DNA of 14,588 bases from the UHGV virus genome UHGV-1840666, one strand, 5' to 3'. The translations under genes were made by a program, and so were the position numbers. Origin of the DNA: a virus. Position 1 is the stretch's first letter. Every line of letters starts with the position of its first letter. Below, one piece after another: positions 1-14,588 of this stretch. Under the pieces are notes generated by a model. The model was not told the origin of the DNA, ran no database searches, and saw only the letters and a list, made by a program, of their open reading frames with translations.

Positions 1-65
1 ACGGTATTTCCCGCGTGGTGTATGACATCAGCGGCAAGCCACCAGCAACTATTGAGTGGGAATGA
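1..65 (+). CDS. guaA: 3-prime end of upstream host-like gene, resembling the GMP synthase (GuaA) C-terminus; partial, continues left of window
   Basis: Frame 3 translates to ...GISRVVYDISGKPPATIEWE then TGA at 63-65. The ...PPATIEWE ending matches my recollection of enterobacterial GuaA; not verified. Confidence 0.45.
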   Translation, partial: GISRVVYDISGKPPATIEWE

Positions 66-113
66 TTAATAGCTAACTCATAGCAAATCATTTCTATTCA
101 GACACTAACTCAA

Positions 114-143
114 CCTCTGTTTTTACAGAGGGTTTTTGTTTTT
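114..143 (+). terminator. Rho-independent terminator after the guaA-like gene
   Basis: Stem CCTCTG (114-119) / CAGAGG (126-131), loop TTTTTA, followed by GTTTTTGTTTTT. Confidence 0.6.
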
Positions 144-256
144 ATGTATTCATTTCTATTCACTCTACACCATATTTTTCGGCGGTACAGGTGACGGTAT
201 TACCTTAAAGGTATACTCTCATACCGTCATGAAAATGGTTTCTATACGGGTGAATT

Positions 257-1506
257 GTGCTTACCGATACAAAATTAAAAAACCTCAAGCCGCAGGACAA
301 ACTGTACAAGGTCTCCGATCGTGACGGGCTGTATGTAGCTGTGCTTACGTCAGGCACGGTCTCGTTTCGCTACGACTACCGTATCAACGGTCGCCGCGAA
401 ACGCTGGTAATCGGGCAGTATGGGCGTGACGGTATCAGCCTGGCAGAAGCGCGAGAAGAACTGATTGCTGCAAAGAAGCTGCTTAAAGCAGGCCAGTCAC
501 CGGCTGCGGCTAAACGTGACGGTATCAAAAAGATTCGTGGTGCCGAGACGTTTGCGGTACATACCGACAGTTATATGAAACACGTCATCCTGGCTGACAG
601 TACCCGCGCAATGAAACAGGCGGTGATCGACCGTGACATACTTCCGGTTCTTGGCAATAAAATGATGGCTGAAATTACCACATCGATGGTTCGTGATTTG
701 TGTGACCGGATTGTCGAACGCGGTGGCCGGGCAACAGCAGTGCAGGCCAGGGAGATCATCAGTAGCGTATACCGTCACGCCAATGACCGTGGTCATGGTT
801 TGTTTAATCCTGCGGCTGACATTAAACCTTCGTCTATCGCCATATTTAAACCAAGAGAGCGAACACTGACACCAGAAGAAATTGGCCTGTTCTTCCGCAC
901 GCTGGATGCCATTGGTGCTATGGCACTATGAAAATGGCTTTAAAGCTGGTGCTTATCACTATGGTTCGTAAAGGCGAATTCACCAACGCAACGTGGGATG
1001 AAATAGATTTTAAAAAATGGACATGGACCATTCCTTCAGACCGCATGAAGGGAAGCCGGGCGCACGTTATTTACCTGCCTAAACAGGCTCAGGATATATT
1101 GGTCGGATTGCAGATGTGCGCTGGTGGAAGTGAATATCTGGTTCCTGGTCGTTACAATTTCCGGAAGCCATTATCTAATGCCGCGCTGAACTCTCTGATC
1201 GACAGAACGGTGAAAATAATAAATGAAGATGGTGAGCATATTCAGGGCTTCACCGTACACGATATGCGCCGTACAGCCAGTACATTGTTGCATGAGGCTG
1301 GTTATCCTTCAGACTGGATTGAAAAGGCTCTGGCACATGAGCAGAAAGGTGTGCGCGCCGTATATAACAAAGCGGAATACGCCAGACAGCGCGCCTACAT
1401 GTTGCAGCAGTGGGCCGATATGATTGATTCCTGGATTGACGGGGAGCATACGGATCTGATTCCGTTCTCCCCGTCGAAGTTTGAGAAGTGGATGGCGGGG
1501 GAATAA
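257..1506 (+). CDS. int: Tyrosine recombinase, P4-type phage integrase (N-terminal DUF4102-like arm-binding region plus C-terminal catalytic domain); split into two ORFs (257-931, 928-1506) by a frameshift near 925-935
   Basis: N-terminal ORF (GTG start) has LTDTKLKNLKP...YRINGRRETLVIGQYG typical of P4-like integrases. C-terminal ORF has VLITMVRKGEF...HDMRRTASTLL...YNKAEYARQ (R/H-x-x-R and Tyr region). Combined about 415 aa. Frame change 2 to 1 is consistent with a 1-bp deletion. Confidence 0.85.
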
Positions 1507-1509
1507 CGT

Positions 1510-1704
1510 TTAATTATTCTGCTGATTTTCTTCCATCTCGGCTTCTGCTGCCAGTGATTCAATTTTATCTGTGAATATTGCTGACAGTGTTGCAAATTCA
1601 GCATCAGTGACAGCGGGAATTGGAACAAACCTGATCCCGCTGTGTGCAAGCATGTTTGCAGTTTCAAGGCATTTCCTTAAATCTGCTGGTGATGCCCTGT
1701 TCAT
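1510..1704 (-). CDS. Small acidic hypothetical protein (about 64 aa), last gene of the leftward operon
   Basis: ATG at 1704-1702 overlaps the methyltransferase stop (ATGA coupling). Product MNRASPADLRKCLETANMLAHSGIRF...EAEMEENQQNN. Taken from the C-terminal part of the 1510-1824 track ORF. Confidence 0.35.
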   Translation of the reverse strand: MNRASPADLRKCLETANMLAHSGIRFVPIPAVTDAEFATLSAIFTDKIESLAAEAEMEENQQNN

Positions 1705-2347
1705 GCTGCACGCTCCCGCCCCTGGTTGTCTGTTGGTGACAGCGGAGCATTGCTGAATGCATTTGTTAATCCGGCAATATACAACGCGTATCCAGGGTGT
1801 AGTTGCACTGCTGGGTCTTCGCACTGATTACCCCAAACATCGAAGCCATGAGACGTTTGGCGGGCGAACAGTTCAATGCGAGAAACATCGCCTAACAATT
1901 GCACAAGTTTTTCACGAACGACATCTGGTTTTCTTGAATGCTCAAGCCGCGGTGCGGTAAATGACTGAACGATACCTGCATTAATGCGCGGAGGTAGTTT
2001 TCCCTTTACCGCAAACAGGCAATCTTCACTGTTGGCGCGAGTCATGTGTCCCATCCCCATAACCAGTTTATCTGGTTGTCGACTACCACATTTTATCCAC
2101 GTGAAGCCCTTCATGGTCATCAGACGAAATCCCCAGGCTTCAACAACTTTTAGTGCTTCGAGTGGTTGTGTTGGCACCCACCACATGGCCAACAGACAGT
2201 TTTCATCGGCCAAATCCCACACAGGAAGGCGGCAGATATCCAGCACACTCATAACCGGATATTTAAAACCGGCACCGCGATTACCATCTGCGGCTTTGTC
2301 CCGGTATACCCAGGTGGATCTGCATAGATTAGCGTGTATTTTTTCAT
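1701..2347 (-). CDS. MT-A70 family (phage Dam-like) DNA N6-adenine methyltransferase; frameshifted inside the DPPW catalytic motif near 2310-2314
   Basis: N-terminus MKKYTLIYADPP (frame of ORF 2249-2473) is followed, after a -1 shift, by WVYRDKAADGNRGAGFKYPVMSVLDI... continuing into the 183-aa ORF, which ends ...FDVWGNQ. The observed CCACCTGGG would read DPPW if it were CCACCCTGG. Confidence 0.8.
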
Positions 2348-2480
2348 TGTTCTGCTCCCAGACTTCCTTTGGTAAAGGCTTGTATCAGCCTGTTTGCTGC
2401 CGCTTTCTGTGCTGCTACATTGGCAATAACTGATAGTTTTTCCTGGCTTGCTTTCGTGCAGATCCCAACCCAATTATCCA

Positions 2481-3445
2481 TTAGGAAAAAATTCTCTCTT
2501 TCTGCGAATCAGTATTTGCACATAATGTTTCAATCATTGAAATTATTTCTTTTATTGAGTGATTAACCATCATTTGCTGAACAGCATAGCCAAAAGCGTT
2601 AATCATCACTGCATGAAACTGGATATATTCTCTTTTGTATTCTGATTGCTTTGTACCATGGCGAATTGCTTCTAGTTGTGTAAGACATAACCATGATTCC
2701 CATACTGACTCGATGTTACCAATTTCTAGTTTTTTCCCATTATGAATACAAAATTTTGATGTTGAATCACTTAATGCTTTGAAACTCACCCACATGTTTG
2801 ACTTTGACGGAACAACGTTGTGCTCGAAGTCAGTGACTTCTGCAAAAGTGTCATGTTGCGACAGGAAAGACACCATTTCTTGGGCAACATCGTTTCGTCC
2901 GTCATACGCCATATTAATTGCTGCAGATGGTTTTGAAACATTATTATTAATGTCAGAAAAGAACTGCTGACGCGCTTCAAAGGAAGGTTATGCGTAAGCA
3001 TAAGAGGAATCATAATTGTTTCGCCATAATTACGGCAGAACTCAGCTAATCCTGCAGCACGATGCTGTCCATCAAATAATTTTATTTCTGCATCCATAGG
3101 AAATCTAGCTAAACCGACATTAGTATTTCCAATCTCATGGAACTCTATTTCTGAGTTACAATTTCCGACCAATGGTGGAACAATAAATGGTTCCTTTTTC
3201 TCGTAAGCGTTGACTAAATATTGATAAAACTTTTTTACCCTGGTTGGATTAATTTCACGTTGAGAACGTTCAAGGGTACTTCCCGTATTGTCGGTTGCCA
3301 ATACTCTCGATAGTGCTCTTGCTGGTACTGTCATCATAAGTATTACAGTGCTTCCCTGCGTTCCTCGTGATGCGGGAAATTCAAAGAAATAATCGCCTAC
3401 CTTGCTCATGATATTACCTTTTACATTATTGTTTTGATTATTCAT
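2481..3445 (-). CDS. DGQHR-domain protein (DndB-like, ParB/Srx-fold); two overlapping ORFs joined by a 1-bp frameshift near 2979-2981
   Basis: N-terminal ORF contains ...IKLFDGQHRAAGLAEF..., the signature DGQHR motif. The downstream frame reads through as ...FEARQQFFSDINNNVSKPSAAINMAYDGRND... to the stop at 2481. Start could be ATG 3445 or ATG 3409 (MSKVGDYFFEF). Confidence 0.7.
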
Positions 3446-4145: not shown

Positions 4146-5063
4146 TTACATAGATGTTTCGTTTAATTCTTCCCGACGAACGCTGTAAACGTCGGTGGCT
4201 TTTGCCAGCAGTTCGTCATCATCTGAAAGTTTTTGTGCAATGTATTTGTAAGCCTTATCCAGTTCGGAGACAGTGCTGTAATTCATCGCTGCGCTGGTAA
4301 AGGCCATCAGCATTTCTTCTGGATCACGGCTATCCGCTTTACGCGTTTGCTCATCAGGCTTTTTCACTGTTTTAGCGTTGATCAGACTGTTCATGCTGGA
4401 TGCTGTGCCGTGCTTTGCCTGACTTCTTGGAGTTACGTCACGTTCAATAATGTCAGGTGAGTCGATATATTTACCTTCCATTTCCTCAGCTGTGGCTTGT
4501 TGACCAATCTCCGGCCATGCTTTACGTAATGCCTGTGCCTCTGCGCATTTTGCCAACTGCGCATAAGGCGCTTTTTCCACATGGCATTTGGTGCCGATGT
4601 GTCACGCCCCCCAGTTGCATAGTTCTCAATCCAGTATTCTTTGGCGCTAAACTCTACGATTTCCCCGCTTGCCCATTCGCTTGCTGACGGTGTACTTACA
4701 CCACTGAGGGAAGGTAACCTCCACGCCTGAAAGCGTTTGTGTTACATCTGGACCGAACTCAGGTTCATTAGCGCCTGCGTAATCGCCGGAACGGTAGGCC
4801 TGAATGCGATAAAGTCCAATGCCAGGCATGACCACGTCGCGCCATTCATTCTTTCCACTCTTCGAGTCTTTAACACTCATTGGTACCAGGTGTACCGGCT
4901 TAAGAAGAGGATCGAGTTGACGCGCCCGGCAGTAATCGACTGCCATCATTACCGATTCATCTTTTGCCCCAGGGTAAATACTGTTTTTCAGAGCGCTCCA
5001 TGTAACTTCATCGATTCCCCGAATAGCCAACACATCATTGGTGATTGCAATTTCGTTGCTCAT
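4146..5063 (-). CDS. recT: RecT-family single-strand annealing recombinase; disrupted by two homopolymer frameshifts (near 4663-4666 and 4572-4576)
   Basis: ATG 5063-5061 overlaps the exonuclease stop (ATGA). N-terminal ORF ...DYCRARQLDPLLKPVHLVPM...GIGLYRIQAYRSG; the middle segment reads in another frame (...EIVEFSAKEYWIENYATGGRDTSAPNAMWKK); C-terminal ORF (V)EKAPYAQLAKCAEAQALRKAW... Placed next to a RecE-like exonuclease. Confidence 0.8.
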
Positions 5064-5881
5064 ACGTACATATCCTGTTTGCGTGCCCACTCAGGGCGTT
5101 TAATAATTTCCACGCCGCCCCATTCATCGCTGATGCGGCATTCGTGATAGGTATTCAGATCCCGGCGGAACAGAGCGTGCCCGGCATCGACATCCGGCGC
5201 ATCCAGCCCGAACACGCGTACCGGATACCGACCACAATCAATGCTTTCGCTCACGGCAAGAAAGAAAAAACCATGCGGCTGACCAGTAATCCTCATTGCG
5301 CCTTCGCGGTACATTGCGTCCTGCACGTGGTAGCGGAATTCCTCGATGTGACGTGCAAAACGGTCCATATCTGCAACCTTTTTCACGTCGACGATCACGT
5401 TGTGCTCGTTCAGCCATTTGTCTGGACGAATTCGGCACAACTCACCCGTCTCTTCATCGTTCCAGTACATTGATGCTTCGCAGTAACCAGGTGCTTCCAG
5501 CATCCAGCGTGCCGCCGGGTGAGCCATTGCGCTATCACGCATCAGCTCCAGTTTCCGCCACTGCTCGGCATCAAGTACCGTAATCCCCATATCCGCTACA
5601 TCACGAAGAAATGCTTCTTCGTCAGCTTTACCTTGTTTCGTCCGACGATCGAACTTCGGTGAAACAATGAAGCGTTTGTCGAATTCTCCAGGCTCCAGAA
5701 GCAGACAGTGCAATGCGGTTCCCATATCCAGTGCAGACTTTTTCTCTTCGTCTTCTGGTGCTGCCTGAACCCATTTAAGAAGCGCCGGATTCTTGGCAAC
5801 CATGTCCAGTTGCGACTTACTCACGCCGTCACCGGCGTGGTAGTCTTCGTTGCTGATGTCGAAATAAATTCCCGGTTTCAT
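5060..5881 (-). CDS. RecE-like PD-(D/E)XK exonuclease (exodeoxyribonuclease VIII-like), partner of RecT
   Basis: Intact 273-aa ORF MKPGIYFDISNEDYHAGDG...RIRPDKW...VIVDVKKVADMD...; directly upstream of, and translationally coupled to, recT. Confidence 0.75.
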   Translation of the reverse strand: MKPGIYFDISNEDYHAGDGVSKSQLDMVAKNPALLKWVQAAPEDEEKKSALDMGTALHCLLLEPGEFDKRFIVSPKFDRRTKQGKADEEAFLRDVADMGITVLDAEQWRKLELMRDSAMAHPAARWMLEAPGYCEASMYWNDEETGELCRIRPDKWLNEHNVIVDVKKVADMDRFARHIEEFRYHVQDAMYREGAMRITGQPHGFFFLAVSESIDCGRYPVRVFGLDAPDVDAGHALFRRDLNTYHECRISDEWGGVEIIKRPEWARKQDMYV

Positions 5882-6177
5882 GCCGCTTCCCTCTGCCCAT
5901 CAAGCTGATCCGCCAGATCCCAGCGCGCTATAATTGCCATTGCCTCGCGCCGGTAGGAATCCATCAGTTCTTCGAACTCAGGGCTGTCTTTAGCAGCCTC
6001 CAGCACTTCCTGACGAACGCCTTTGCCTGTTACAACGTCGAAAGTTGAGGACAGTTGATGAAGTCGGATGCTCTCAATCAGTTCAACTTGTCGGTCATAT
6101 AGCTGTTCTGACAGGCGGTAGTCCTTGTCGAATGCCAGCATGATTTTTTGAAGATTTTTCTGCTGATTAACGTTCAT
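5878..6177 (-). CDS. Hypothetical phage protein (about 99 aa)
   Basis: ORF with ATG at 6177 preceded by GGGAGGG (6190-6184); the track's earlier start at 6192 lacks an RBS. Stop overlaps the exonuclease ATG. Confidence 0.55.
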   Translation of the reverse strand: MNVNQQKNLQKIMLAFDKDYRLSEQLYDRQVELIESIRLHQLSSTFDVVTGKGVRQEVLEAAKDSPEFEELMDSYRREAMAIIARWDLADQLDGQREAA

Positions 6178-7069: not shown

Positions 7070-7124
7070 TTTCTGGAAAATCGCCTCATATATGAATCAG
7101 TAGATGATTCAATTTAAAGCAATA

Positions 7125-7187
7125 TTACCCAACAGGTAAATGCACCTCATAGGTAACTATCCTTGATTTTTGTTACCTTATGGGTGA
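7125..7187. promoter_or_regulatory. Tripartite operator region (OR-like) between the repressor and cro-like genes
   Basis: TTACCcaacaGGTAA (7125-7139), GCACCtcataGGTAA (7142-7156, imperfect), TTACCttatgGGTGA (7173-7187, imperfect); candidate -35 TTGATT at 7163-7168. Confidence 0.5.
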
Positions 7188-7223
7188 ATATTTATTATCT
7201 GAAATAAATATCAGGCAATAGCT

Positions 7224-7454
7224 ATGAGCGATAACGGACATTTCGATTTCAAAAAGCACTGGCTTGCACTTACTCCGGATGAGCGTGAAGCCTTCGCACA
7301 GGAAGCCGGAACGACGAGTCACTATATCCAGACTCACTTAACAGGTAAGCGCAAAATGCCAGGTAAAGTATTGATGAATGGGCTTTTTAAAGCCTGTAAA
7401 ACAAGACAATGGCTGCGCTCAAAAGCAGAACTGGCATACTTCTTCTACTCATGA
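7224..7454 (+). CDS. Cro/YdaS-like small HTH regulator (76 aa)
   Basis: First rightward gene after the operator region; ...TPDEREAFAQEAGTTSHYIQTHLTGKRKMPGKVLMNG... is HTH-like; followed by a terminator. Confidence 0.6.
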   Translation: MSDNGHFDFKKHWLALTPDEREAFAQEAGTTSHYIQTHLTGKRKMPGKVLMNGLFKACKTRQWLRSKAELAYFFYS

Positions 7455-7476
7455 TATCCAGCTACAACCCTCTGTA

Positions 7477-7498
7477 GACCGCCACCCGGCGGTCTTTT
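7477..7498 (+). terminator. Rho-independent terminator after the cro-like gene (tR1-like position)
   Basis: GACCGCC (7477-7483) / GGCGGTC (7488-7494) stem, ACCC loop, then TTTT. Confidence 0.6.
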
Positions 7499-7602
7499 CA
7501 TATCTATTCGTACCTCAAAGGTAATAAAAAACCAAATCTGGTTGATCAAATTTTCCAATTGTGCAAAATATCCAATATCAATAACAAAAAGAGGCGGAAA
7601 AA

Positions 7603-7815
7603 TTGAAGATAGTAACCAGAATGGAGGCCGCAAAAGCCGGGTTAAATCGCTATTTCACAGGAAAGCGGTGCCGTCACGGCCATCTCTCTGAAAGGTATGT
7701 TCTGAACGGAACATGTGTTGAATGTGCAATGAATAGCGCCAACCGCCATCGTAATGAATTTGCTTGTGCACTAAAGAGTGCAAGAGGGGAAACCTATGGC
7801 AAGCAGCTGGATTAA
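7603..7815 (+). CDS. Small Cys/His-rich hypothetical protein at the cII position (about 70 aa)
   Basis: TTG start with AGAGG RBS 8 nt upstream; product has C-x-H-G-H ... C-x-x-C spacing (KRCRHGHLSERYVLNGTCVECAM), suggesting a zinc ribbon. Function unknown. Confidence 0.45.
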   Translation: MKIVTRMEAAKAGLNRYFTGKRCRHGHLSERYVLNGTCVECAMNSANRHRNEFACALKSARGETYGKQLD

Positions 7816-8619
7816 GGTTGAAGTTATCACTCCTGATAAACCTGAAATTTTTCAGATAGCAGAAATTCTGGGTATTGATCCAGATGCTGTTCTTGGAAAG
7901 CTGGTTCGTATATGGGCATGGGCTGACCAGCAAACAATAGACGGTAACGCTGGCAGCGTTACAAAAGGAGTACTTGATAGACTCGCTTTTATTACAGGAT
8001 TTGCTGACGCCCTCATTAGCGTCGGATGGCTTGCTTATCATGACGGCAAACTAATTCTTCCAAACTTTGAGCGACACAATGGAGAATCATCGAAAAAACG
8101 TGCACTTACGAATAGAAGAGTGGCAGAGCATCGAAAACGAGTAACGCAAAAATAACGCCAACAGCGTTACAAAAGGAGTTACCAGAGGAAGAGGAAGATA
8201 TATATAAAACCCCACACATAGCGCACGTGCGCGAGGGTGCTCCGACCAGTGAAGCGAACGGTATGCCGTTGCAGGTGGCTGAACCTGAATTTCTGGATGG
8301 CCTGAGTGAACCCATCGGGAAATTTCCGATGACCGATGGCCGGCATCCGTCGCCGGATTTTCGACGGCGTGCTGCGCTGTGGGGAACGGCCCTGCCGGAA
8401 CCGGAATTTACACCTGCTGAACTTGCTGCATTCCGGGATTACTGGATGGCTGAGGGCAAAGTGTTCACGCAGGTTCAGTGGGAACAAAAATTCGCCAGGC
8501 ACGTAAATCATATCAGGGGAAAATCAAAAAACGCCGGGAAAAGCGATGAGCTTGACTGGAATAACACTGACTGGATAGAAGGGGTGTGGGATGAAATCAA
8601 CTCCAGAACTTCTCAATGA
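7796..8619 (+). CDS. Replication initiator: replisome-organizer N-terminal domain fused to a DnaT-like C-terminal domain; frameshift near 8134-8140
   Basis: ATG 7796 with AGAGGGGA RBS. N-part MASSWIKVEVITPDKPEIFQIAEILGID...VGWLAYHDGKL. After a -1 shift the frame reads NAKITPTALQKELPEEEEDIYK... and continues ...IGKFPMTDGRHPSPDFRRRAALWGTALPEPEFTPAELAAFRDYWMAEGKVFTQVQWEQKFARHV, closely resembling the E. coli DnaT C-terminus as recalled. Confidence 0.7.
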
Positions 8620-9366
8620 GTACGATCGCTTACGTGAGCATGGTGTTGCTGTGCATGAAGAGCGGCGTGACAGCAATGGCAAAAAGGAGCATGTCGCTAG
8701 AATTTTCAATGAACTATTTGTCCAGTTACAGGCTGCATTTCCCGCAAGCGTTTCGACCATAAGGGAGCAGAACAAACTTAATGAATTCCGTAAGCAATGG
8801 ATGCTTGCGTTTCTGGAGAATGGGATCACTACAATGGAACAGGTTAACGCTGGTATGCGCCACGCCCGCGCCAGTGAGTCTCCGTTCTGGCCGTCGCCAG
8901 GGCAATTCATCAAGTGGTGTAAAGACAGCAAGATGGTTCTTGGCGTCACCATTGACGATGTGATGGCAGAGTTTCACCGGTACAGCAAGGAAAAAAGTTT
9001 ATATCCTGGTGGTCCCGAAAGATTCCCGTGGCGGCACCCGGTTATGTACTGGGTCGTATGTGATACCCGCCGTGCAATGTATCAGCGCCAGCTTAGCGAG
9101 ATTGAGTTGAGAAACACGCGCGCAGGCTGCTCGATGATTGGGCGAAAAAGGTGGCTTCAGGACAGCAGATACCCGATCCGGTGATCAGCATACAGGCAAA
9201 GCCAGAACCCATGAGTACGCCTCCGGACACAGGGAGAGACGTTTACCATCCACCAGGGCGAAGTTTCGGGTGCATGCCTAACGCCGCCACCCTTGGGGGA
9301 ATAACACCGGCGCAGTGGCTGATGGAGGAATACAGGCGGGGAAAGGCGGCAGGATTTATCAAGTAA
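8591..9366 (+). CDS. Lambda P-like replication protein (DnaB helicase loader); frameshift near 9108-9116
   Basis: ...QWMLAFLENGITTMEQVNAGMRHARASESPFWPSPGQFIKWCKD... matches the conserved core of lambda P as recalled. The C-terminus continues in the adjacent frame (...RRLLDDWAKKVASGQQIPDPV...). Confidence 0.75.
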
Positions 9367-9888: not shown

Positions 9889-10326
9889 ATGGAAAGTAAT
9901 ATCAAAGGGTTAGTTGCCGCCGGGCATGAGATGGCTTCGGAACTGAAAGCAGAATGTGGTGCCGTTGATATGCGCAGTGTGGCAAAGCTGATCAGCTATT
10001 TGGCAACGCAACTGGAAGTGCAACTGGTGCGTGCTAATGCGCTGGCTGCGGAGAATGCGCTGGCTCGTAAAGCAGTTCAGGCATTTTGCGATGTTGTTGG
10101 CGACAGCACCGAGGTTATCTGCGAGGAGATTGGGCGAGATGGCGTTCTGGTTATTTTGGAGGCAATGAAGGCAACAGGAAATATGCCAGCCACCGATGCT
10201 TTCCTGTCTGAAGTGCGGGCGCAGGGGGTAGAGATGATGCGCGAACATCCATCAATCAAACTTTGTTCTTTGACGCACATATGTGATGAGTTAGCCGCCC
10301 AGCTTCGCAAAGGAGGCAGCCAGTGA
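9889..10326 (+). CDS. Hypothetical phage protein (145 aa)
   Basis: ATG 9889 with GAGGGTAAAG RBS; intact ORF; stop overlaps the next start. Confidence 0.55.
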   Translation: MESNIKGLVAAGHEMASELKAECGAVDMRSVAKLISYLATQLEVQLVRANALAAENALARKAVQAFCDVVGDSTEVICEEIGRDGVLVILEAMKATGNMPATDAFLSEVRAQGVEMMREHPSIKLCSLTHICDELAAQLRKGGSQ

Positions 10327-10817
10327 GCGAAATTAATTACCAGGCATTGCGTGAGGCGGCAGAGAAAGCAACGTGGGGAGACTGGGACTCATATAAACCA
10401 CACCGTGGCGCACGTGGTTATGAGGTCCGACTAAGTAGTCAGGCCATTGCGCAACACGTTCTGAAAAACAACGCTGAATTTATTGCTGCCTTTAATCCAA
10501 AGGTTGCTTTGGCACTACTGGATGAACGGGAAAAAAACCAGCAATACATCAAACTCCGCGACCAGGAGAACGAGGATATTGCGCTAACGGTAGGGAAGCT
10601 GCGCGTTGAGCTTGAAGCAGAAAAACAGATGGCAAAGGTTCTATTTATGGAAAATGCTCGGCTTAAGTCAGGCATAGCCGGTCTGATACACCTCGGTATT
10701 CGATATGCAGATGTTGAGGTCATGAAAATTGCTGGAGATGCCCAGCTTTCTACTCCATGCACTGACAGCATCATAAACAGCATTGCAACAGGCATTCGCA
10801 TCAACGGAGGTGAGTAG
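10323..10817 (+). CDS. Ea22-like protein (lambda Ea22 family)
   Basis: MSEINYQALREAAEKA... and ...LLDEREKNQQYIKLRDQENEDIALTVGKLRVELEAEK... resemble lambda Ea22 as recalled; GTG start overlapping the upstream stop. Confidence 0.7.
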   Translation: MSEINYQALREAAEKATWGDWDSYKPHRGARGYEVRLSSQAIAQHVLKNNAEFIAAFNPKVALALLDEREKNQQYIKLRDQENEDIALTVGKLRVELEAEKQMAKVLFMENARLKSGIAGLIHLGIRYADVEVMKIAGDAQLSTPCTDSIINSIATGIRINGGE

Positions 10818-10993
10818 TGCGTGTGGCATGTATCGGCTTGTTACCGTACCCGACTCGTTTTTGGGCTTCTGCGCTAATTGCAAAGCCACATGTCCTGATG
10901 GCTGACAACATCATCCCGGCACCAAAGCGCCGCCATACCGGTATTGCAGCGGCACGACGAGCAGCAAAGAGACGCAGGAGAGCAAAGCGATGA
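10817..10993 (+). CDS. Possible small protein with Arg-rich C-terminus (58 aa)
   Basis: GTG 10817 overlapping the Ea22-like stop; ...HTGIAAARRAAKRRRRAKR; stop overlaps the next ATG. Could instead be a frameshifted extension of the Ea22-like gene. Confidence 0.25.
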   Translation: MRVACIGLLPYPTRFWASALIAKPHVLMADNIIPAPKRRHTGIAAARRAAKRRRRAKR

Positions 10994-11167
10994 AAAACCG
11001 TAAGGCAAAACGACTTTTTTTTACAGCGACCTGTGCGTGTGGTGGAGCTGGTTATTAGCAACCATAAGATAGCGGTACTCCATCCATTTGGTCAGGTGGC
11101 TTTTGCCGCAAAGCGTAAGCCTACTGCGTCACAGAACAGGCGGAAGAAAGGGTACGCTGTAAGATGA
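10990..11167 (+). CDS. Small basic hypothetical protein, paralog A (MKNRKAK...); frameshifted in a T8 run (11015-11022)
   Basis: ATG 10990. Read with T7 instead of T8 the ORF gives MKNRKAKRLFLQRPVRVVELVISNHKIAVLHPFGQVAFAAKRKPTASQNRRKKGYAVR, ending ATGA-overlapped with paralog B and resembling it at both ends. Confidence 0.3.
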
Positions 11168-11352
11168 AAAACCGTAAAGCAAAGATTCTGTTAGTTCGTA
11201 GAAACGCTCCTGGCGTCTGGCAGTGGGTGAGACTCAGCAACCGACGGATGGGGTTGATGAAATATTACGGGATGATGGATTGTGGTTTTTGCAAAAAGCC
11301 CAGCGCGGCGCAAAACCGCTGGAAAAACCACTTGCGCACTAAAGGAGAGTGA
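11164..11352 (+). CDS. Small basic hypothetical protein, paralog B (62 aa)
   Basis: Track ORF MKNRKAKILLVRRNAPGVWQWVRLSNRRMGLMKYYGMMDCGFCKKPSAAQNRWKNHLRTKGE; the first 20 nt nearly repeat the start of paralog A. Confidence 0.4.
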   Translation: MKNRKAKILLVRRNAPGVWQWVRLSNRRMGLMKYYGMMDCGFCKKPSAAQNRWKNHLRTKGE

Positions 11353-11353
11353 T

Positions 11354-11867
11354 ATGGCGTTAACACACCGCGAACTCTGTCAGATTGCGTATAAGTTCCT
11401 TAAGCGCAACGGGTTCAAGGTTTGTTTCATGACCGCTTTATAGCTGTAACCAGTACCGGAGAACAGCCAGATGCTATGGGATTCAGAAATTCAGCATCAT
11501 GCCTGATAGAGGCGAAGTGTTCTCGTGCTGACTTGTTGGCAGATAGAAAAAAGCGTTTTCGTAAAAATCCATCTCTTGGAATGGGCGACTGGCGATTCTT
11601 TATTAGTGAGCGGGAATTATTTCAGTTGAGGATTTACCACCTGGCTGGGGATTACTTCACGTTGTTAACGGAAGAGTACGGAAAGTACATGGGTGGCCCA
11701 AGGGTAATTGCTGTTGGGGTAATCCTGACGATAAGCCATTTACTGGAAATAAGCAGGTTGAATGCGATTACATGTTATCTGCATTAAGGCGCATGGAGTT
11801 GAGAGGGCACCTTAATGAAATATATGACGGTGTAATTGTTAATAAGAAAGAAGGAAACGCGGCATGA
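11354..11867 (+). CDS. PD-(D/E)XK-fold nuclease-like protein (Hjc/MmcB/VRR-NUC-like); two frameshifts (near 11425-11440 and 11600-11620)
   Basis: ATG 11354 with AAGGAG RBS. MALTHRELCQIAYKFLKRNGFKVCF...IAVTSTGEQPDAMGFRNSASCLIEAKCSRADL shows E...PD...E-x-K spacing. The frame returns to ...NPDDKPFTGNKQVECDYMLSALRRMELRGHLNEIYDGVIVNKKEGNAA with the stop overlapping the next ATG. Confidence 0.5.
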
Positions 11868-12642
11868 TCACTATTACCAATAAGAAACAGTATCCCAGCG
11901 AGCAATATCTTAATGAGCTGATCACCAACATAGAGTTTGCTGCAAGGGCACCAGTTGAAGTCGTGAGAGCAATGGCAGCAGAGCTACAGAAGCGGCGCGA
12001 AGCTGATAGCGCAGAACCAGTTGCTTATATTTTCAAACATCCGGCCGGGAAATTATTCTGGGCTTTAACGGATGAAAGTAATAAAGAGCAAGCGGACGTT
12101 ATTCCTGTTTATGCCGCCCCTCCAGTGCCAGTAGTACCTGAAGAAAAACCAATGCCTAACCCTCTTAAAATGTACGCGGTCGATGCTGTTGCCGCTATTG
12201 CAGAGGTGAGAGGCTGGAACGCTGCCGCGCCGCCATGCTTCAGGCCGAACCTGTAAGTAATAGTGATGAGTTACCGCTGGACTATCTGCAAGGACACAAA
12301 GACGGCCTGGAGTGGGCTGCACAATTGGCAGAAGCCAATCATCCGCAAACAGGTGACTGGTTGTACGACGACCCAATCGATCTTGCCAGGGCGATTCGCA
12401 AAGGTCCTGATATGCCTACTGTTCAGGCTGGCAACTATCCGGTAACTCCGGATGGTTGGATAAGCTGTAGTGAGCGAATGCCCGCTCAAGATGATTGGAT
12501 TTTAATTTATTCAAAGCACGGCGAGTATATGGCAGGACAGGTACAAGGGGAATACGTGGAGTTGAGCGACGGCACTTTATCGTGGTTAGGGAACGCCTTG
12601 TACTGGATGCCTCTACCGGAACCGCCGCAGGAGGTTAATTGA
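11864..12642 (+). CDS. DUF551-domain phage protein; frameshift near 12215-12235
   Basis: C-terminal part ...DGWISCSERMPAQDDWILIYSKHGEYMAGQVQGEYVELSDGTLSWLGNALYWMPLPEPP is a typical DUF551 signature; the N-terminal ORF from ATG 11864 (AAGGAA RBS) runs into it after a -1 shift. Confidence 0.65.
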
Positions 12643-12926: not shown

Positions 12927-13203
12927 CCTGCAACTTGCCGTTAAAGGTGAATACTTCGATGCCATGATTCGCGGAGAGAAAACGGAAGAGTATCGCCTGT
13001 GTAATGACTACTGGAATAAGCGAATTATGTTCCGCGAGTATGACCGCCTGATTATCACAAAGGGATATCCGAAGCGCGACGATTCCAGCCGCAGAATTGA
13101 CGTCCCGTATGACGGATATGAAATCAAGACAATCACACATCCGCACTTCGGCGATAAACCGGTAAAGGTGTTCGCGATAAAGGTGAATATCAGCAATGAA
13201 TAA
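12919..13203 (+). CDS. ASCH-domain-like protein (94 aa)
   Basis: GTG 12919 with GGAGGAAGG RBS; ...AVKGEYFDAMIRGEKTEEYR...YDRLIITKGY...KVFAIKV fits the ASCH/PUA-like pattern. Confidence 0.5.
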   Translation: MANLQLAVKGEYFDAMIRGEKTEEYRLCNDYWNKRIMFREYDRLIITKGYPKRDDSSRRIDVPYDGYEIKTITHPHFGDKPVKVFAIKVNISNE

Positions 13204-13237
13204 CAATCCTCGCACTCGCGGGGATTTCTTTTATCTG

Positions 13238-13262
13238 AACTCGCTACGGCGAGTTTTGTTTT
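13238..13262 (+). terminator. Rho-independent terminator after the ASCH-like gene
   Basis: AACTCGC (13238-13244) / GCGAGTT (13249-13255) stem, TACG loop, then TTTTGTTTT. Confidence 0.5.
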
Positions 13263-13275
13263 ATGGAGATGATAA

Positions 13276-13443
13276 ATGCACTTCCGGGTGACAGGTGAAT
13301 GGAATGGAGAACCATTCAACAGAGTTATCGAAGCGGAGAACATCAACGACTGCTATGACCACTGGATGCTGTGGGCGCAGATAGCGCATGCAGACGTAAC
13401 CAATATTCGAATTGAAGAACTGAAAGAACACCATGCCGCCTGA
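13276..13443 (+). CDS. Small hypothetical protein (55 aa), possibly the lambda orf55 equivalent
   Basis: ATG 13276 with GGAG RBS; MHFRVTGEWNGEPFNRVIEAENINDCYDHWMLWAQIAHADVTNIRIEELKEHHAA. Below the track cutoff; the orf55 link is from memory of lambda gene order only. Confidence 0.4.
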   Translation: MHFRVTGEWNGEPFNRVIEAENINDCYDHWMLWAQIAHADVTNIRIEELKEHHAA

Positions 13444-13456
13444 TGGCGGTTTTTTA
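13435..13456 (+). terminator. Rho-independent terminator overlapping the stop of the 55-aa ORF
   Basis: GCCGCC (13435-13440) / GGCGGT (13445-13450) stem, TGAT loop, then a T-run (13450-13455). Confidence 0.5.
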
Positions 13457-13469
13457 TTGGAGACAAGAA

Positions 13470-13814
13470 ATGTCAGATTTGGCTATGAAGGTTTTGAAAT
13501 GGCAATCGACTGGCGATGTCGGCATCAGTAGCGCAACTCTTGCCTCAATCGCATGTGGACTGAAAAAGAATATCTATGGTCATAGCTTCGGTGCTCCACA
13601 TGACGCAGCCGATTTCCGGCGATGCGTTGCACTTGTTGAGCAGATTCCAGAAATCAGAGATTCATTCGACAAGGTTGCAAAGCTCGTTCCGGCATTCAAA
13701 GGCATCCTCAACGAATGGGATTCCCTCGTTGCTCTGTTGAAGTCTGAAATGAAGATACACGGAAACAAAGCACCAGAGACTTACAGAAGAATTAGCGAAC
13801 TACGCAAGGACTAA
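13470..13814 (+). CDS. Hypothetical protein (114 aa) upstream of xis
   Basis: ATG 13470 with GGAG 7 nt upstream (the track start at 13443 lies inside the terminator loop); MSDLAMKVLKWQSTGDVGISSATLASIACGLKK... Confidence 0.5.
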   Translation: MSDLAMKVLKWQSTGDVGISSATLASIACGLKKNIYGHSFGAPHDAADFRRCVALVEQIPEIRDSFDKVAKLVPAFKGILNEWDSLVALLKSEMKIHGNKAPETYRRISELRKD

Positions 13815-13929
13815 CCATGGAATCACACAGCCTCAAACCCAATGAGGCCTGTTCATTTCTCAAGATATCCAGACCTACCATTGCCGCATCAATGCGGCTT
13901 TTCTTGCGTGTAATTGCGGAGACTTTGCG

Positions 13930-14148
13930 ATGTACTTGACACTTCAGGAGTGGAACGCACGCCAGCGACGCCCAAGAAGCCTTGAAACAGTTCGTCGATG
14001 GATACGCGAGTGCAGGATATTCCCTCCTCCGGTTAAGGATGGAAGAGAGTATCTGTTCCACGAATCAGCGGTAAAGGTTGACTTAAATCGACCAGTAACA
14101 GGTAGCCTTTTGAAGAGGATCAGAAATGGGAAGAAGGCGAAGTCATGA
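13930..14148 (+). CDS. xis: Excisionase Xis (lambda type)
   Basis: 72-aa product MYLTLQEWNARQRRPRSLETVRRWIRECRIFPPPVKDGREYLFHESAVKVDLNRPVTG.LLKRIRNGKKAKS is near-identical to lambda Xis as recalled; overlaps the int start. Confidence 0.9.
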   Translation: MYLTLQEWNARQRRPRSLETVRRWIRECRIFPPPVKDGREYLFHESAVKVDLNRPVTGSLLKRIRNGKKAKS

Positions 14149-14588
14149 GCGCCGGGATTTACCCCCTAATCTTTATATAAGAAACAATGGATATTACTGC
14201 TATAGGGACCCAAGGACGGGTAAAGAGTTTGGATTAGGCCGAGACAGGAGGATAGCAATCACTGAAGCAATACAGGCCAACATTGAGTTATTTTCAGGAC
14301 ACAAACACAAGCCTCTGACAGCGAGAATCAACAGTGATAATTCTGTTACGTTACATTCATGGCTTGATCGCTACGAAAAAATCCTCGCCAACAGAGGAAT
14401 CAAGCAGAAGACACTCATAAATTACATGAGCAAAATTAAAGCAATAAGGAGGGGTCTGCCTGATGCTCCACTTGAAGACATCACCACAAAAGAAATTGCG
14501 GCAATGCTCAATGGATACATAGACGAGGGCAAGGCGGCGTCAGCAAGTTAATCAGATCAACACTGAGCGATGCATTCCGAGGGAGGCA
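14126..14588 (+). CDS. int: Lambda-type integrase Int, N-terminal part (continues beyond window); 1-bp frameshift near 14545-14548
   Basis: MGRRRSHERRDLPPNLYIRNNGYYCYRDPRTGKEFGLGRDRRIAITEAIQANIELFSGHKHKPLTARINSD... matches the lambda Int N-terminus as recalled. The ORF stops at ...GKAASAS while the +1 frame continues KLIRSTLSDAF..., which is the known lambda continuation. Confidence 0.9.

Follow-up and report, generated by a model that had tools for sequence, protein, structure and literature searches.

The UHGV virus genome UHGV-1840666 was analyzed over its whole length of 14,588 nucleotides, here called the window, with a focus on short DNA repeats inside its replication-initiator gene, which we consider a candidate origin of replication. 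This region belongs to the early-right (replication) segment of a prophage close to Escherichia phages TL-2011b and vB_EcoP_ZX5, epsilon15-like members of the genus Uetakevirus that show 98 to 99% identity to the window over positions 7600 to 8650. The gene order is repressor, cro/cII-like gene (7224 to 7454), terminator, small open reading frame (ORF; 7603 to 7815), initiator, and lambda-P-like gene.

The initiator gene lies on the plus strand and is split in the window. Its 5' part (7796 to 8155) starts at the ATG at 7796 and encodes the N-terminal domain (N-domain) in 119 codons, ending at a TAA that was made by a deletion; it is 98 to 100% identical to TL-2011b gp12 and to the "primosomal protein I" of ZX5. 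The remainder (8155 to 8619), in a shifted frame, encodes a disordered linker and a DnaT-like C-terminal domain (C-domain). In relatives with an intact gene, the initiator has 274 to 276 codons. A first-pass annotation of this DNA had already named the gene a replication initiator, and this assignment is well founded: the protein belongs to PHROG 2509 ("replication initiation protein"), the C-domain of an intact homologue matches PF17948 DnaT (E = 1e-18) and has PDB sequence matches to DnaT, and the next gene (8591 to 9366, plus strand) encodes a lambda-P-like helicase loader, the initiator's partner, whose TL-2011b homologue matches PF06992 Phage_lambda_P (E = 2e-55). The loader gene is also split in the window, by a 1-base deletion at 9105.

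The N-domain gave no match in Pfam, NCBIfam, and PDB sequence searches, and a homologue search with the N-domain alone returned only short fragments. Its AlphaFold2 (AF2) model (predicted local distance difference test [pLDDT] score of 77.6) has three or four helices and a β-hairpin and gives weak structural matches of the winged-helix type. The predicted fold is compatible with DNA binding but is no proof of it. The linker is predicted to be disordered (pLDDT of <50, residues 116 to 161). The N-domain family is very large, with 6,812 clusters at 50% identity when clusters with an E value of 1e-3 or better are counted.

Repeated heptamers in two clusters

The first-pass annotation had described an 18-bp direct repeat in the initiator gene. 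The 18-mer CAGCGTTACAAAAGGAGT is indeed found in two exact copies on the plus strand, at 7954 to 7971 (copy 1) and at 8162 to 8179 (copy 2), and nowhere else at up to three mismatches. Two such matches were seen in 0 of 200 dinucleotide shuffles, which makes the repeat a nonchance feature, and the similarity around the copies reaches 27 nt at 89% (7945 to 7971 and 8153 to 8179). However, the 18-mer is not the unit of repetition. Reading the sequence and aligning it with three phages, we recognized that the real unit is the heptamer GTAACGC, or its complement GCGTTAC, at a 12-bp period in mixed direct and inverted orientation. Copy 1 runs from the end of one spacer through a GCGTTAC heptamer and the following spacer into the third heptamer slot of its cluster; copy 2 is composed in the same way within the second cluster. 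The 18-mer is identical at both places because it covers a single heptamer, a spacer, and the first bases of the slot that follows. Four of the five exact GTAACGC words of the 14.6-kb window fall in 7944 to 8170.

Cluster A (7944 to 7974) lies within the part of the gene encoding the N-domain (codons 50 to 60) and consists of GTAACGC (7944 to 7950), TGGCA, GCGTTAC (7956 to 7962), AAAAG, and a degenerate third slot, GAGTACT (7968 to 7974). Its first two heptamers form the 19-bp palindrome GTAACGC-TGGCA-GCGTTAC. Cluster B (8141 to 8182), about 210 bp away, lies within the part encoding the interdomain linker (codons 116 to 129) and consists of GTAACGC (8141 to 8147), aTAACGC (8152 to 8158), GCGTTAC (8164 to 8170), and GAGTTAC (8176 to 8182), the last of which is a one-mismatch copy of the heptamer. 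In intact relatives, cluster B reads GTAACGC-AAAAA-GTAACGC-CAACA-GCGTTAC-AAAAG-GAGTTAC, with four heptamers at an exact 12-bp period, the first two pointing to the right and the last two to the left. The array as a whole contains two 19-bp palindromes of the form GTAACGC-N5-GCGTTAC plus flanking heptamers. The earlier statement that each 18-mer copy is preceded by GTAACGC is correct for copy 1 (7944 to 7950); before copy 2 the window has aTAACGC, with the G lost, whereas all close relatives have GTAACGC. At the repeats, a promoter and terminator scan found nothing specific except the palindromes themselves, which were picked up on the minus strand.

In enterobacterial relatives, synonymous sites are also frozen in a second island at 8078 to 8112 (codons 95 to 105, NGESSKKRALT; DNA TCGAAAAAACGTGCACTTAC), where 24 of 24 sequences have AAA for K100 and K101 and CTT for L104. 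Some relatives have GTTAC in place of the CTTAC of this island, so that it may be one more degenerate half-site; its conservation across the wider family is not obvious.

The G missing before copy 2 is a single-base deletion between 8152 and 8153, which splits the initiator, damages the second heptamer of cluster B, and makes the TAA at 8153 to 8155; the frameshift reported earlier beside copy 2 is therefore present in this sequence. The G is kept in every close phage relative examined and in the best matches among the 296 complete Escherichia coli genomes that match the region. Relative to the most similar prophage (E. coli SCU-125), seven single-base deletions (113, 921, 2312, 6718, 8152, 9105, and 9524) and no single-base insertion appear in the alignments that cover the replication region and its flanks. 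All seven are losses of G or C, most of them in short G/C runs, and several split ORFs, those of the integrase, repressor, initiator, and P genes among them. The source contig, NODE_374 of the ENA metagenome assembly ERZ504554, has a coverage of 2.45×. As the deletion is private to this sequence and is one of seven such losses in a contig of this coverage, the frameshift is probably of technical origin, most likely an assembly error with no bearing on how the repeat arose, and the seven deletions together look like assembly error, not gene decay. Programmed frameshifting at CAAAAAG was also considered and rejected, since homologues have one open frame and no canonical slippery heptamer lies in frame.

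Other assemblies show irregularities at the same place. Contigs from SRR18681747, SRR22784926, and SRR16292294 carry a different 1-base loss at gene nt 350 to 357 (window 8148 to 8152), by which the A5 spacer between the first two heptamers of cluster B becomes A4, the spacing becomes 11 bp, and an identical N-domain-only product of 119 amino acids results. In at least one of these three contigs the repressor gene is intact. The A4 spacer could be a real circulating allele with a truncated initiator or a recurrent error. Four independent metagenome contigs stop at gene nt 357 to 359, inside cluster B and directly after GTAACGCAAAAA, which suggests that the cluster B repeat, or strain variation there, breaks assemblies.

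Conservation and selection at the DNA level

We compared 105 related loci down to about 54% identity and then 80 more across the wider family; the layout was counted in 68 nonredundant relatives with 33 to 60% GC. Cluster A was found at gene nt 149/161(/173) in 61 of the 68, and cluster B with at least two heptamers in 59. Each locus has 2 to 3 heptamers in cluster A and 2 to 6 in cluster B, the number shifting in 12-bp (four-codon) steps, and the positions of the heptamers in the gene are equal in nearly all relatives, in 12-bp register. Exact heptamers occur at a density of 15.8/kb in gene nt 100 to 470, against 0.40/kb in 147 kb of flanking DNA, and 79 adjacent pairs are spaced at exactly 12 bp. 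The first-pass annotation had named, as checks, the presence of the second copy in homologous genes and of further iteron-like copies; both were found.

Synonymous positions inside the heptamers are frozen. In 28 representatives with less than 92% nucleotide identity, the four codons whose third base falls inside a heptamer are GGT (25/26), AAC (28/28), AGC (24/24, out of six serine codons), and GTT (26/26). Their normalized codon entropy is 0.03, compared with 0.80 for 63 other conserved degenerate codons (Mann-Whitney P = 7e-4), in which synonyms are used freely. Moreover, the codon phase of cluster B differs between lineages and even inside one gene: across the family, 19 forward heptamers are in phase 0 and 61 in phase 1, and the corresponding numbers for reverse heptamers are 46 and 48. 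The DNA of cluster B is translated as VTPTALQK in E. coli phages (VTQKVTPTALQK in the E. coli branch) and as NANSNATSVT in Pectobacterium phages (NGNANSNATSVT in Pectobacterium and Serratia phages). The earlier observation that the two 18-mer copies are read in different frames also holds in intact homologues, where they encode GSVTKGV and TALQKEL. Frozen synonymous sites together with different codon phases indicate that selection acts on the DNA.

These results also bear on the simplest explanations, namely, a peptide motif used twice, chance, recent duplication, or an assembly artifact. The motif NAxSVT does occur at both places in most family members, and the window does come from a low-coverage contig. 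However, the E. coli branch keeps the DNA of cluster B and not the peptide, the synonymous positions are frozen, and hundreds of independent genomes contain the two copies. Taken together, the conservation, codon, phase, and spacing results exclude chance, recent duplication, and peptide-level selection, and we regard explanations of this kind as extremely improbable. The suggestion that the second copy is a small duplication artifact can be dropped as well, as both clusters are ancient and found family-wide.

One base past the last heptamer begins a polypurine tract, AGAGGAAGAGGAAGA followed by TATATATAAAA (8184 to 8209, plus strand), which is a candidate unwinding or loading region. It consists of a 15-nt polypurine stretch and an 11-nt A/T run and contains the least stable 25-mer of the gene (8185 to 8209), at −26.1 kcal/mol, compared with a mean of −33.4 kcal/mol for the window, which ranks it at the 98.9th percentile window-wide. 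In 39 nonredundant loci, the purine run starts 1 nt past the last GTTAC core. The purine-only run has a median length of 21 nt in relatives; the longest such run in the flanks has 12 nt. The tract has the form (GAGAA)4-5 in most of the family and (GAGGAA)2-4 in the enterobacterial branch; translated in three frames, (GAGAA)4-5 gives the EKRREEK signature of the family. It is retained even in loci with a different repeat word. Past the tract, many relatives carry AAAACCCC or TAAACCCCA (window 8206 to 8214), a short conserved word at the right edge of the candidate origin, and in epsilon15 (1902 to 1921 of its locus) this word is present twice, 11 bp apart.

Repeat words and N-domain subfamilies

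N-domain subfamilies at 33 to 39% identity keep the layout (an early cluster, a linker cluster, and C-AGAGAAGAGAAG) with different words. Epsilon15, Pseudomonas phiPSA1, and Ralstonia RPZH6 have GTCCGC/GCGGAC at an 11-bp period, located in epsilon15 at gene nt 55, 66, 79, and 101 and at 334, 345, 358, and 369, and Ralstonia phage Raharianne has GTAGAC/GTCTAC at a 12-bp period. Xanthomonas CP2, whose N-domain is 55% identical, keeps GTAACG. The neighboring parts are not constant: many loci with the heptamers lack the small upstream ORF, and the C-domain and the downstream loader vary across relatives, the types found being lambda-P-like, DnaC-like, and Toprim-DnaB-like. With the upstream ORF, the C-domain, and the loader all variable, the N-domain and the repeats thus form a single cassette that moves as a unit, and the purine tract is shared by all. 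The covariation of word and N-domain, which is the decisive evidence, points to the heptamers as cognate initiator-binding sites of an intragenic origin.

Recognition by another protein, either a host factor or the small zinc-ribbon-like product of the ORF at 7603 to 7815, would also place binding sites here. A universal host factor might require GTAACGC to be kept across hosts from about 33 to 60% GC, as it is, and the upstream ORF overlaps the initiator start. However, within the same set of host groups the word follows the N-domain subfamily (GTCCGC in epsilon15, a Salmonella phage, and GTAACGC in phages of E. coli, Enterobacter, and Klebsiella), a pattern that a host factor would not produce, and the many heptamer-keeping loci without the upstream ORF speak against its product. 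We therefore consider recognition by another protein quite improbable.

The junction between the conserved N-domain and the varied C-domain modules lies directly past the polypurine tract, which would suit words serving as recombination "linker" sequences for swapping these modules by homologous recombination. Such a role, which seems very unlikely to us, leaves unexplained the strict 12-bp period, the inverted pairs, the variation in copy number, the cluster in the N-domain part, and the change of word with subfamily; lambda-type initiators, too, have a module junction beside the origin.

The palindromes could instead act as hairpins, in mRNA (translation or stability) or in single-stranded DNA (a priming or primosome-assembly signal). 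Their 7-bp arms and 5-nt loops, their detection as terminator-like on the minus strand, the self-complementarity that is kept although the words differ between subfamilies, and the DnaT-like C-domain are all in keeping with this. On the other hand, many direct repeats, up to three or four in tandem, have no partner, the word is invariant within a subfamily with no compensatory substitutions, and no Rfam family matched in the window. Hairpins thus appear highly improbable as the explanation. A structured RNA element was rejected for the missing Rfam match, the invariant word, and the many partnerless copies.

The Rac prophage of E. coli K-12, for which an active origin, oriJ, has been reported (PMC3945230), offers a related case. 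Some Rac-like prophages carry the window-type N-domain and heptamer clusters in their ydaU-ydaV module (72.6% identity). Unlike these, K-12 YdaU has a DUF1376 N-domain and its own GATGTTCAA repeats, while its C-domain is shared with the Rac-like YdaU that carries the window-type N-domain and heptamers; a comparison of the window N-domain with K-12 YdaU (DUF1376) by hhalign found no relationship. In K-12 ydaU (5120 to 5977 of its locus), the repeat (A/G)ATGTTCAA is present in 6 to 7 copies, including an inverted pair at 5545 to 5577, in the parts coding for the N-domain and linker. These repeats are candidate iterons of oriJ. The published "oriJ" PCR primers map inside ydaV, and oriJ is thus not located by them.

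A candidate origin inside the initiator gene

DNA-level conservation, periodic arrangement, and covariation of word and N-domain were observed directly. From these we infer binding by the initiator, unwinding, and origin activity, and we think it probable that the repeat is part of a phage replication origin inside the initiator gene, of the lambda kind. The first-pass annotation had proposed initiator-binding sites of a lambda-like origin; the comparative evidence for this is strong, with binding and origin function predicted from sequence. In the mechanism that we propose, dimers of the N-terminal (winged-helix-like) domain would sit on the palindromes and spread cooperatively over neighboring heptamers, and the two clusters might be bridged into a nucleoprotein complex resembling the lambda "O-some." The adjoining purine tract would then be opened, possibly aided by rightward transcription, because purine-rich RNA forms stable hybrids with the template. 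The DnaT-like C-terminal domain and the downstream P-like loader would recruit the host DnaB helicase.

Ori-lambda is located centrally within O; its minimal binding unit is an imperfect inverted repeat of 19 bp, an AT-rich tract is adjacent, and extra iterons add amino acids to O (PMC7466680). As in lambda and Stx phages, the repeats of the window occupy a central part of the initiator gene, cluster B falling in the linker between the putative origin-binding N-domain and the putative loader-binding C-domain. A 19-bp inverted-repeat unit and a P-like loader gene downstream are further likenesses, and the tract beside cluster B is a candidate counterpart of the easily opened lambda tract. Repeat number varies between phages and alters protein length in both. 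Unlike ori-lambda, however, the window has 7-bp half-sites at a 12-bp period that also occur as tandem direct copies, two clusters about 210 bp apart in place of one block of four to six, and, as in most relatives, a (GAGAA/GAGGAA)n polypurine tract in place of an AT-rich region of about 40 bp. The proteins differ as well: the N-domain is unrelated by sequence to lambda O and has no Pfam or NCBIfam match, the C-domain is DnaT-like, and DnaT (PF17948), in the C-domain, is the sole match found, which places the protein outside the lambda O family.

Several points weigh against the origin reading. A 7-bp word at a 12-bp period and a cluster inside the coding region of a folded domain are unlike characterized lambdoid origins. 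The AT-rich flank sought in the first-pass annotation was found only in part: the DNA beside cluster B should melt easily but is a short polypurine/A+T tract, not a classical 40-bp AT-rich region, and no 100-nt window of the gene falls below 38% GC. Helical phasing between the clusters was not discriminating, with a resultant length of 0.5 to 0.7 at every period tried. We found no description of this origin or its words in a literature search that left most subscription journals uncovered, so that an older account may exist; a word search of the ZX5 genome paper gave no mention of an origin, and the curated epsilon15 record annotates repressor and IHF (integration host factor) sites and no origin. 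Finally, the binding sites may serve autoregulation or copy control instead of initiation.

In this last case, the heptamers would bind the initiator for control, as an autoregulatory element or roadblock on the replication operon or through copy-number "handcuffing" of the clusters, and replication would start elsewhere. Two separate clusters, one of them inside a domain-coding region, fit such a role, and the covariation with the N-domain supports binding and not specifically origin firing. Iteron plasmids such as P1 and F have extra iteron clusters that act negatively. However, the replication region showed no further repeat cluster and no strikingly unstable stretch that might serve as an origin, and the fixed 1-nt distance between cluster B and the polypurine tract suggests a composite origin. 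The lambda precedent also puts the origin in this linker (PMC7466680). We consider a start site elsewhere unlikely, although on these data a control role of one or both clusters is inseparable from initiation.

Other replication systems share single traits with the candidate origin. The oriL of Bacillus phage SPP1 is in gene 38, whose product, the two-domain replisome organizer G38P, binds repeats in its own gene and hands over to a helicase loader; the protein family and the repeats are different. Plasmid iterons (P1, F, R6K, and RK2) are direct repeats of 17 to 22 bp with a spacing of about 22 bp, usually outside rep and accompanied by DnaA boxes. They resemble the window in being arrays of short initiator-specific repeats with variable copy number, with a second control cluster sometimes present on plasmids. 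An iteron-type plasmid origin was nevertheless rejected for the window, where a 7-bp word is spaced at 12 bp in 79 adjacent pairs, in mixed orientation and within the gene. In bacterial oriC, a DnaA box is followed by the DnaA-trio, a short one-strand tandem repeat where the DNA opens, and in the window, too, a double-strand word is followed directly by a short one-strand tandem repeat. Unlike the DnaA-trio, the purine unit is 5 or 6 nt long and the initiator is unrelated; single-strand binding would be hypothetical here.

The surroundings of the initiator gene have features of their own. The ORF at 7603 to 7815 encodes 70 amino acids with a zinc-ribbon-like CxxH...CxxC pattern (PHROG 1081, function unknown); its 3' end overlaps the initiator start by 20 nt, and within the family it is found only in the enterobacterial branch. 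A strong hairpin resembling an intrinsic terminator, AGACCGCCACCCGGCGGTCT followed by TTTCATATCT (7476 to 7504), lies between the cro/cII-like gene and the replication genes, in the position of a tR1-type terminator. Inverted repeats with GGTAAC/GTTACC, for example, ATGCACCTCATAGGTAAC ... GTTACCTTATGGGTGAAT, occur at 7123 to 7189, within the AT-rich interval that separates the divergent repressor and cro-like genes, and a related copy lies ahead of the small ORF (7511 to 7530). They are probably immunity operators; their word resembles the core of the heptamer, with different flanks. The left end of the window (1 to 2341) aligns with the guaA end and the adjacent integrase of E. coli SCU-125, indicating a prophage at a guaA-proximal attachment site. 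Positions 2342 to 3437, 4150 to 5877, 10060 to 12429, and 13191 to 14588 have no match to the SCU-125 prophage, which indicates a mosaic genome.

More tentatively, the window may hold the E. coli version of an origin architecture, one we did not find described, that would be common to a large initiator family: initiator-specific words of 6 to 7 bp at an 11- to 12-bp period, in two intragenic clusters, with a near-universal (GAGAA)n tract fused to the last word. The tract might then be a dedicated opening or loading element, independent of the type of loader; it could work like the DnaA-trios, as a repeat recognized in single-stranded form, or as a stretch prone to R-loops that is fired by transcription. 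The EKRREEK signature might, on the same tentative footing, be nothing beyond the purine DNA repeat read in three frames.

If the origin reading is correct, it would locate the origin in the epsilon15/phiV10/TL-2011b group and in thousands of related prophages of Proteobacteria, where none is annotated at present, and it would explain the odd and highly conserved peptide signature GNAxSVT ... ALPEKRREEK as the shadow of DNA signals. Annotators would have to bear in mind that the linker of these proteins is constrained by DNA and not by protein. The sequence rule would allow prophage origins and replication incompatibility to be predicted and would help in building phage-derived replicons. The family would also provide a natural series of initiators and words (GTAACGC, GTCCGC, and GTAGAC) for studying how origin specificity evolves.

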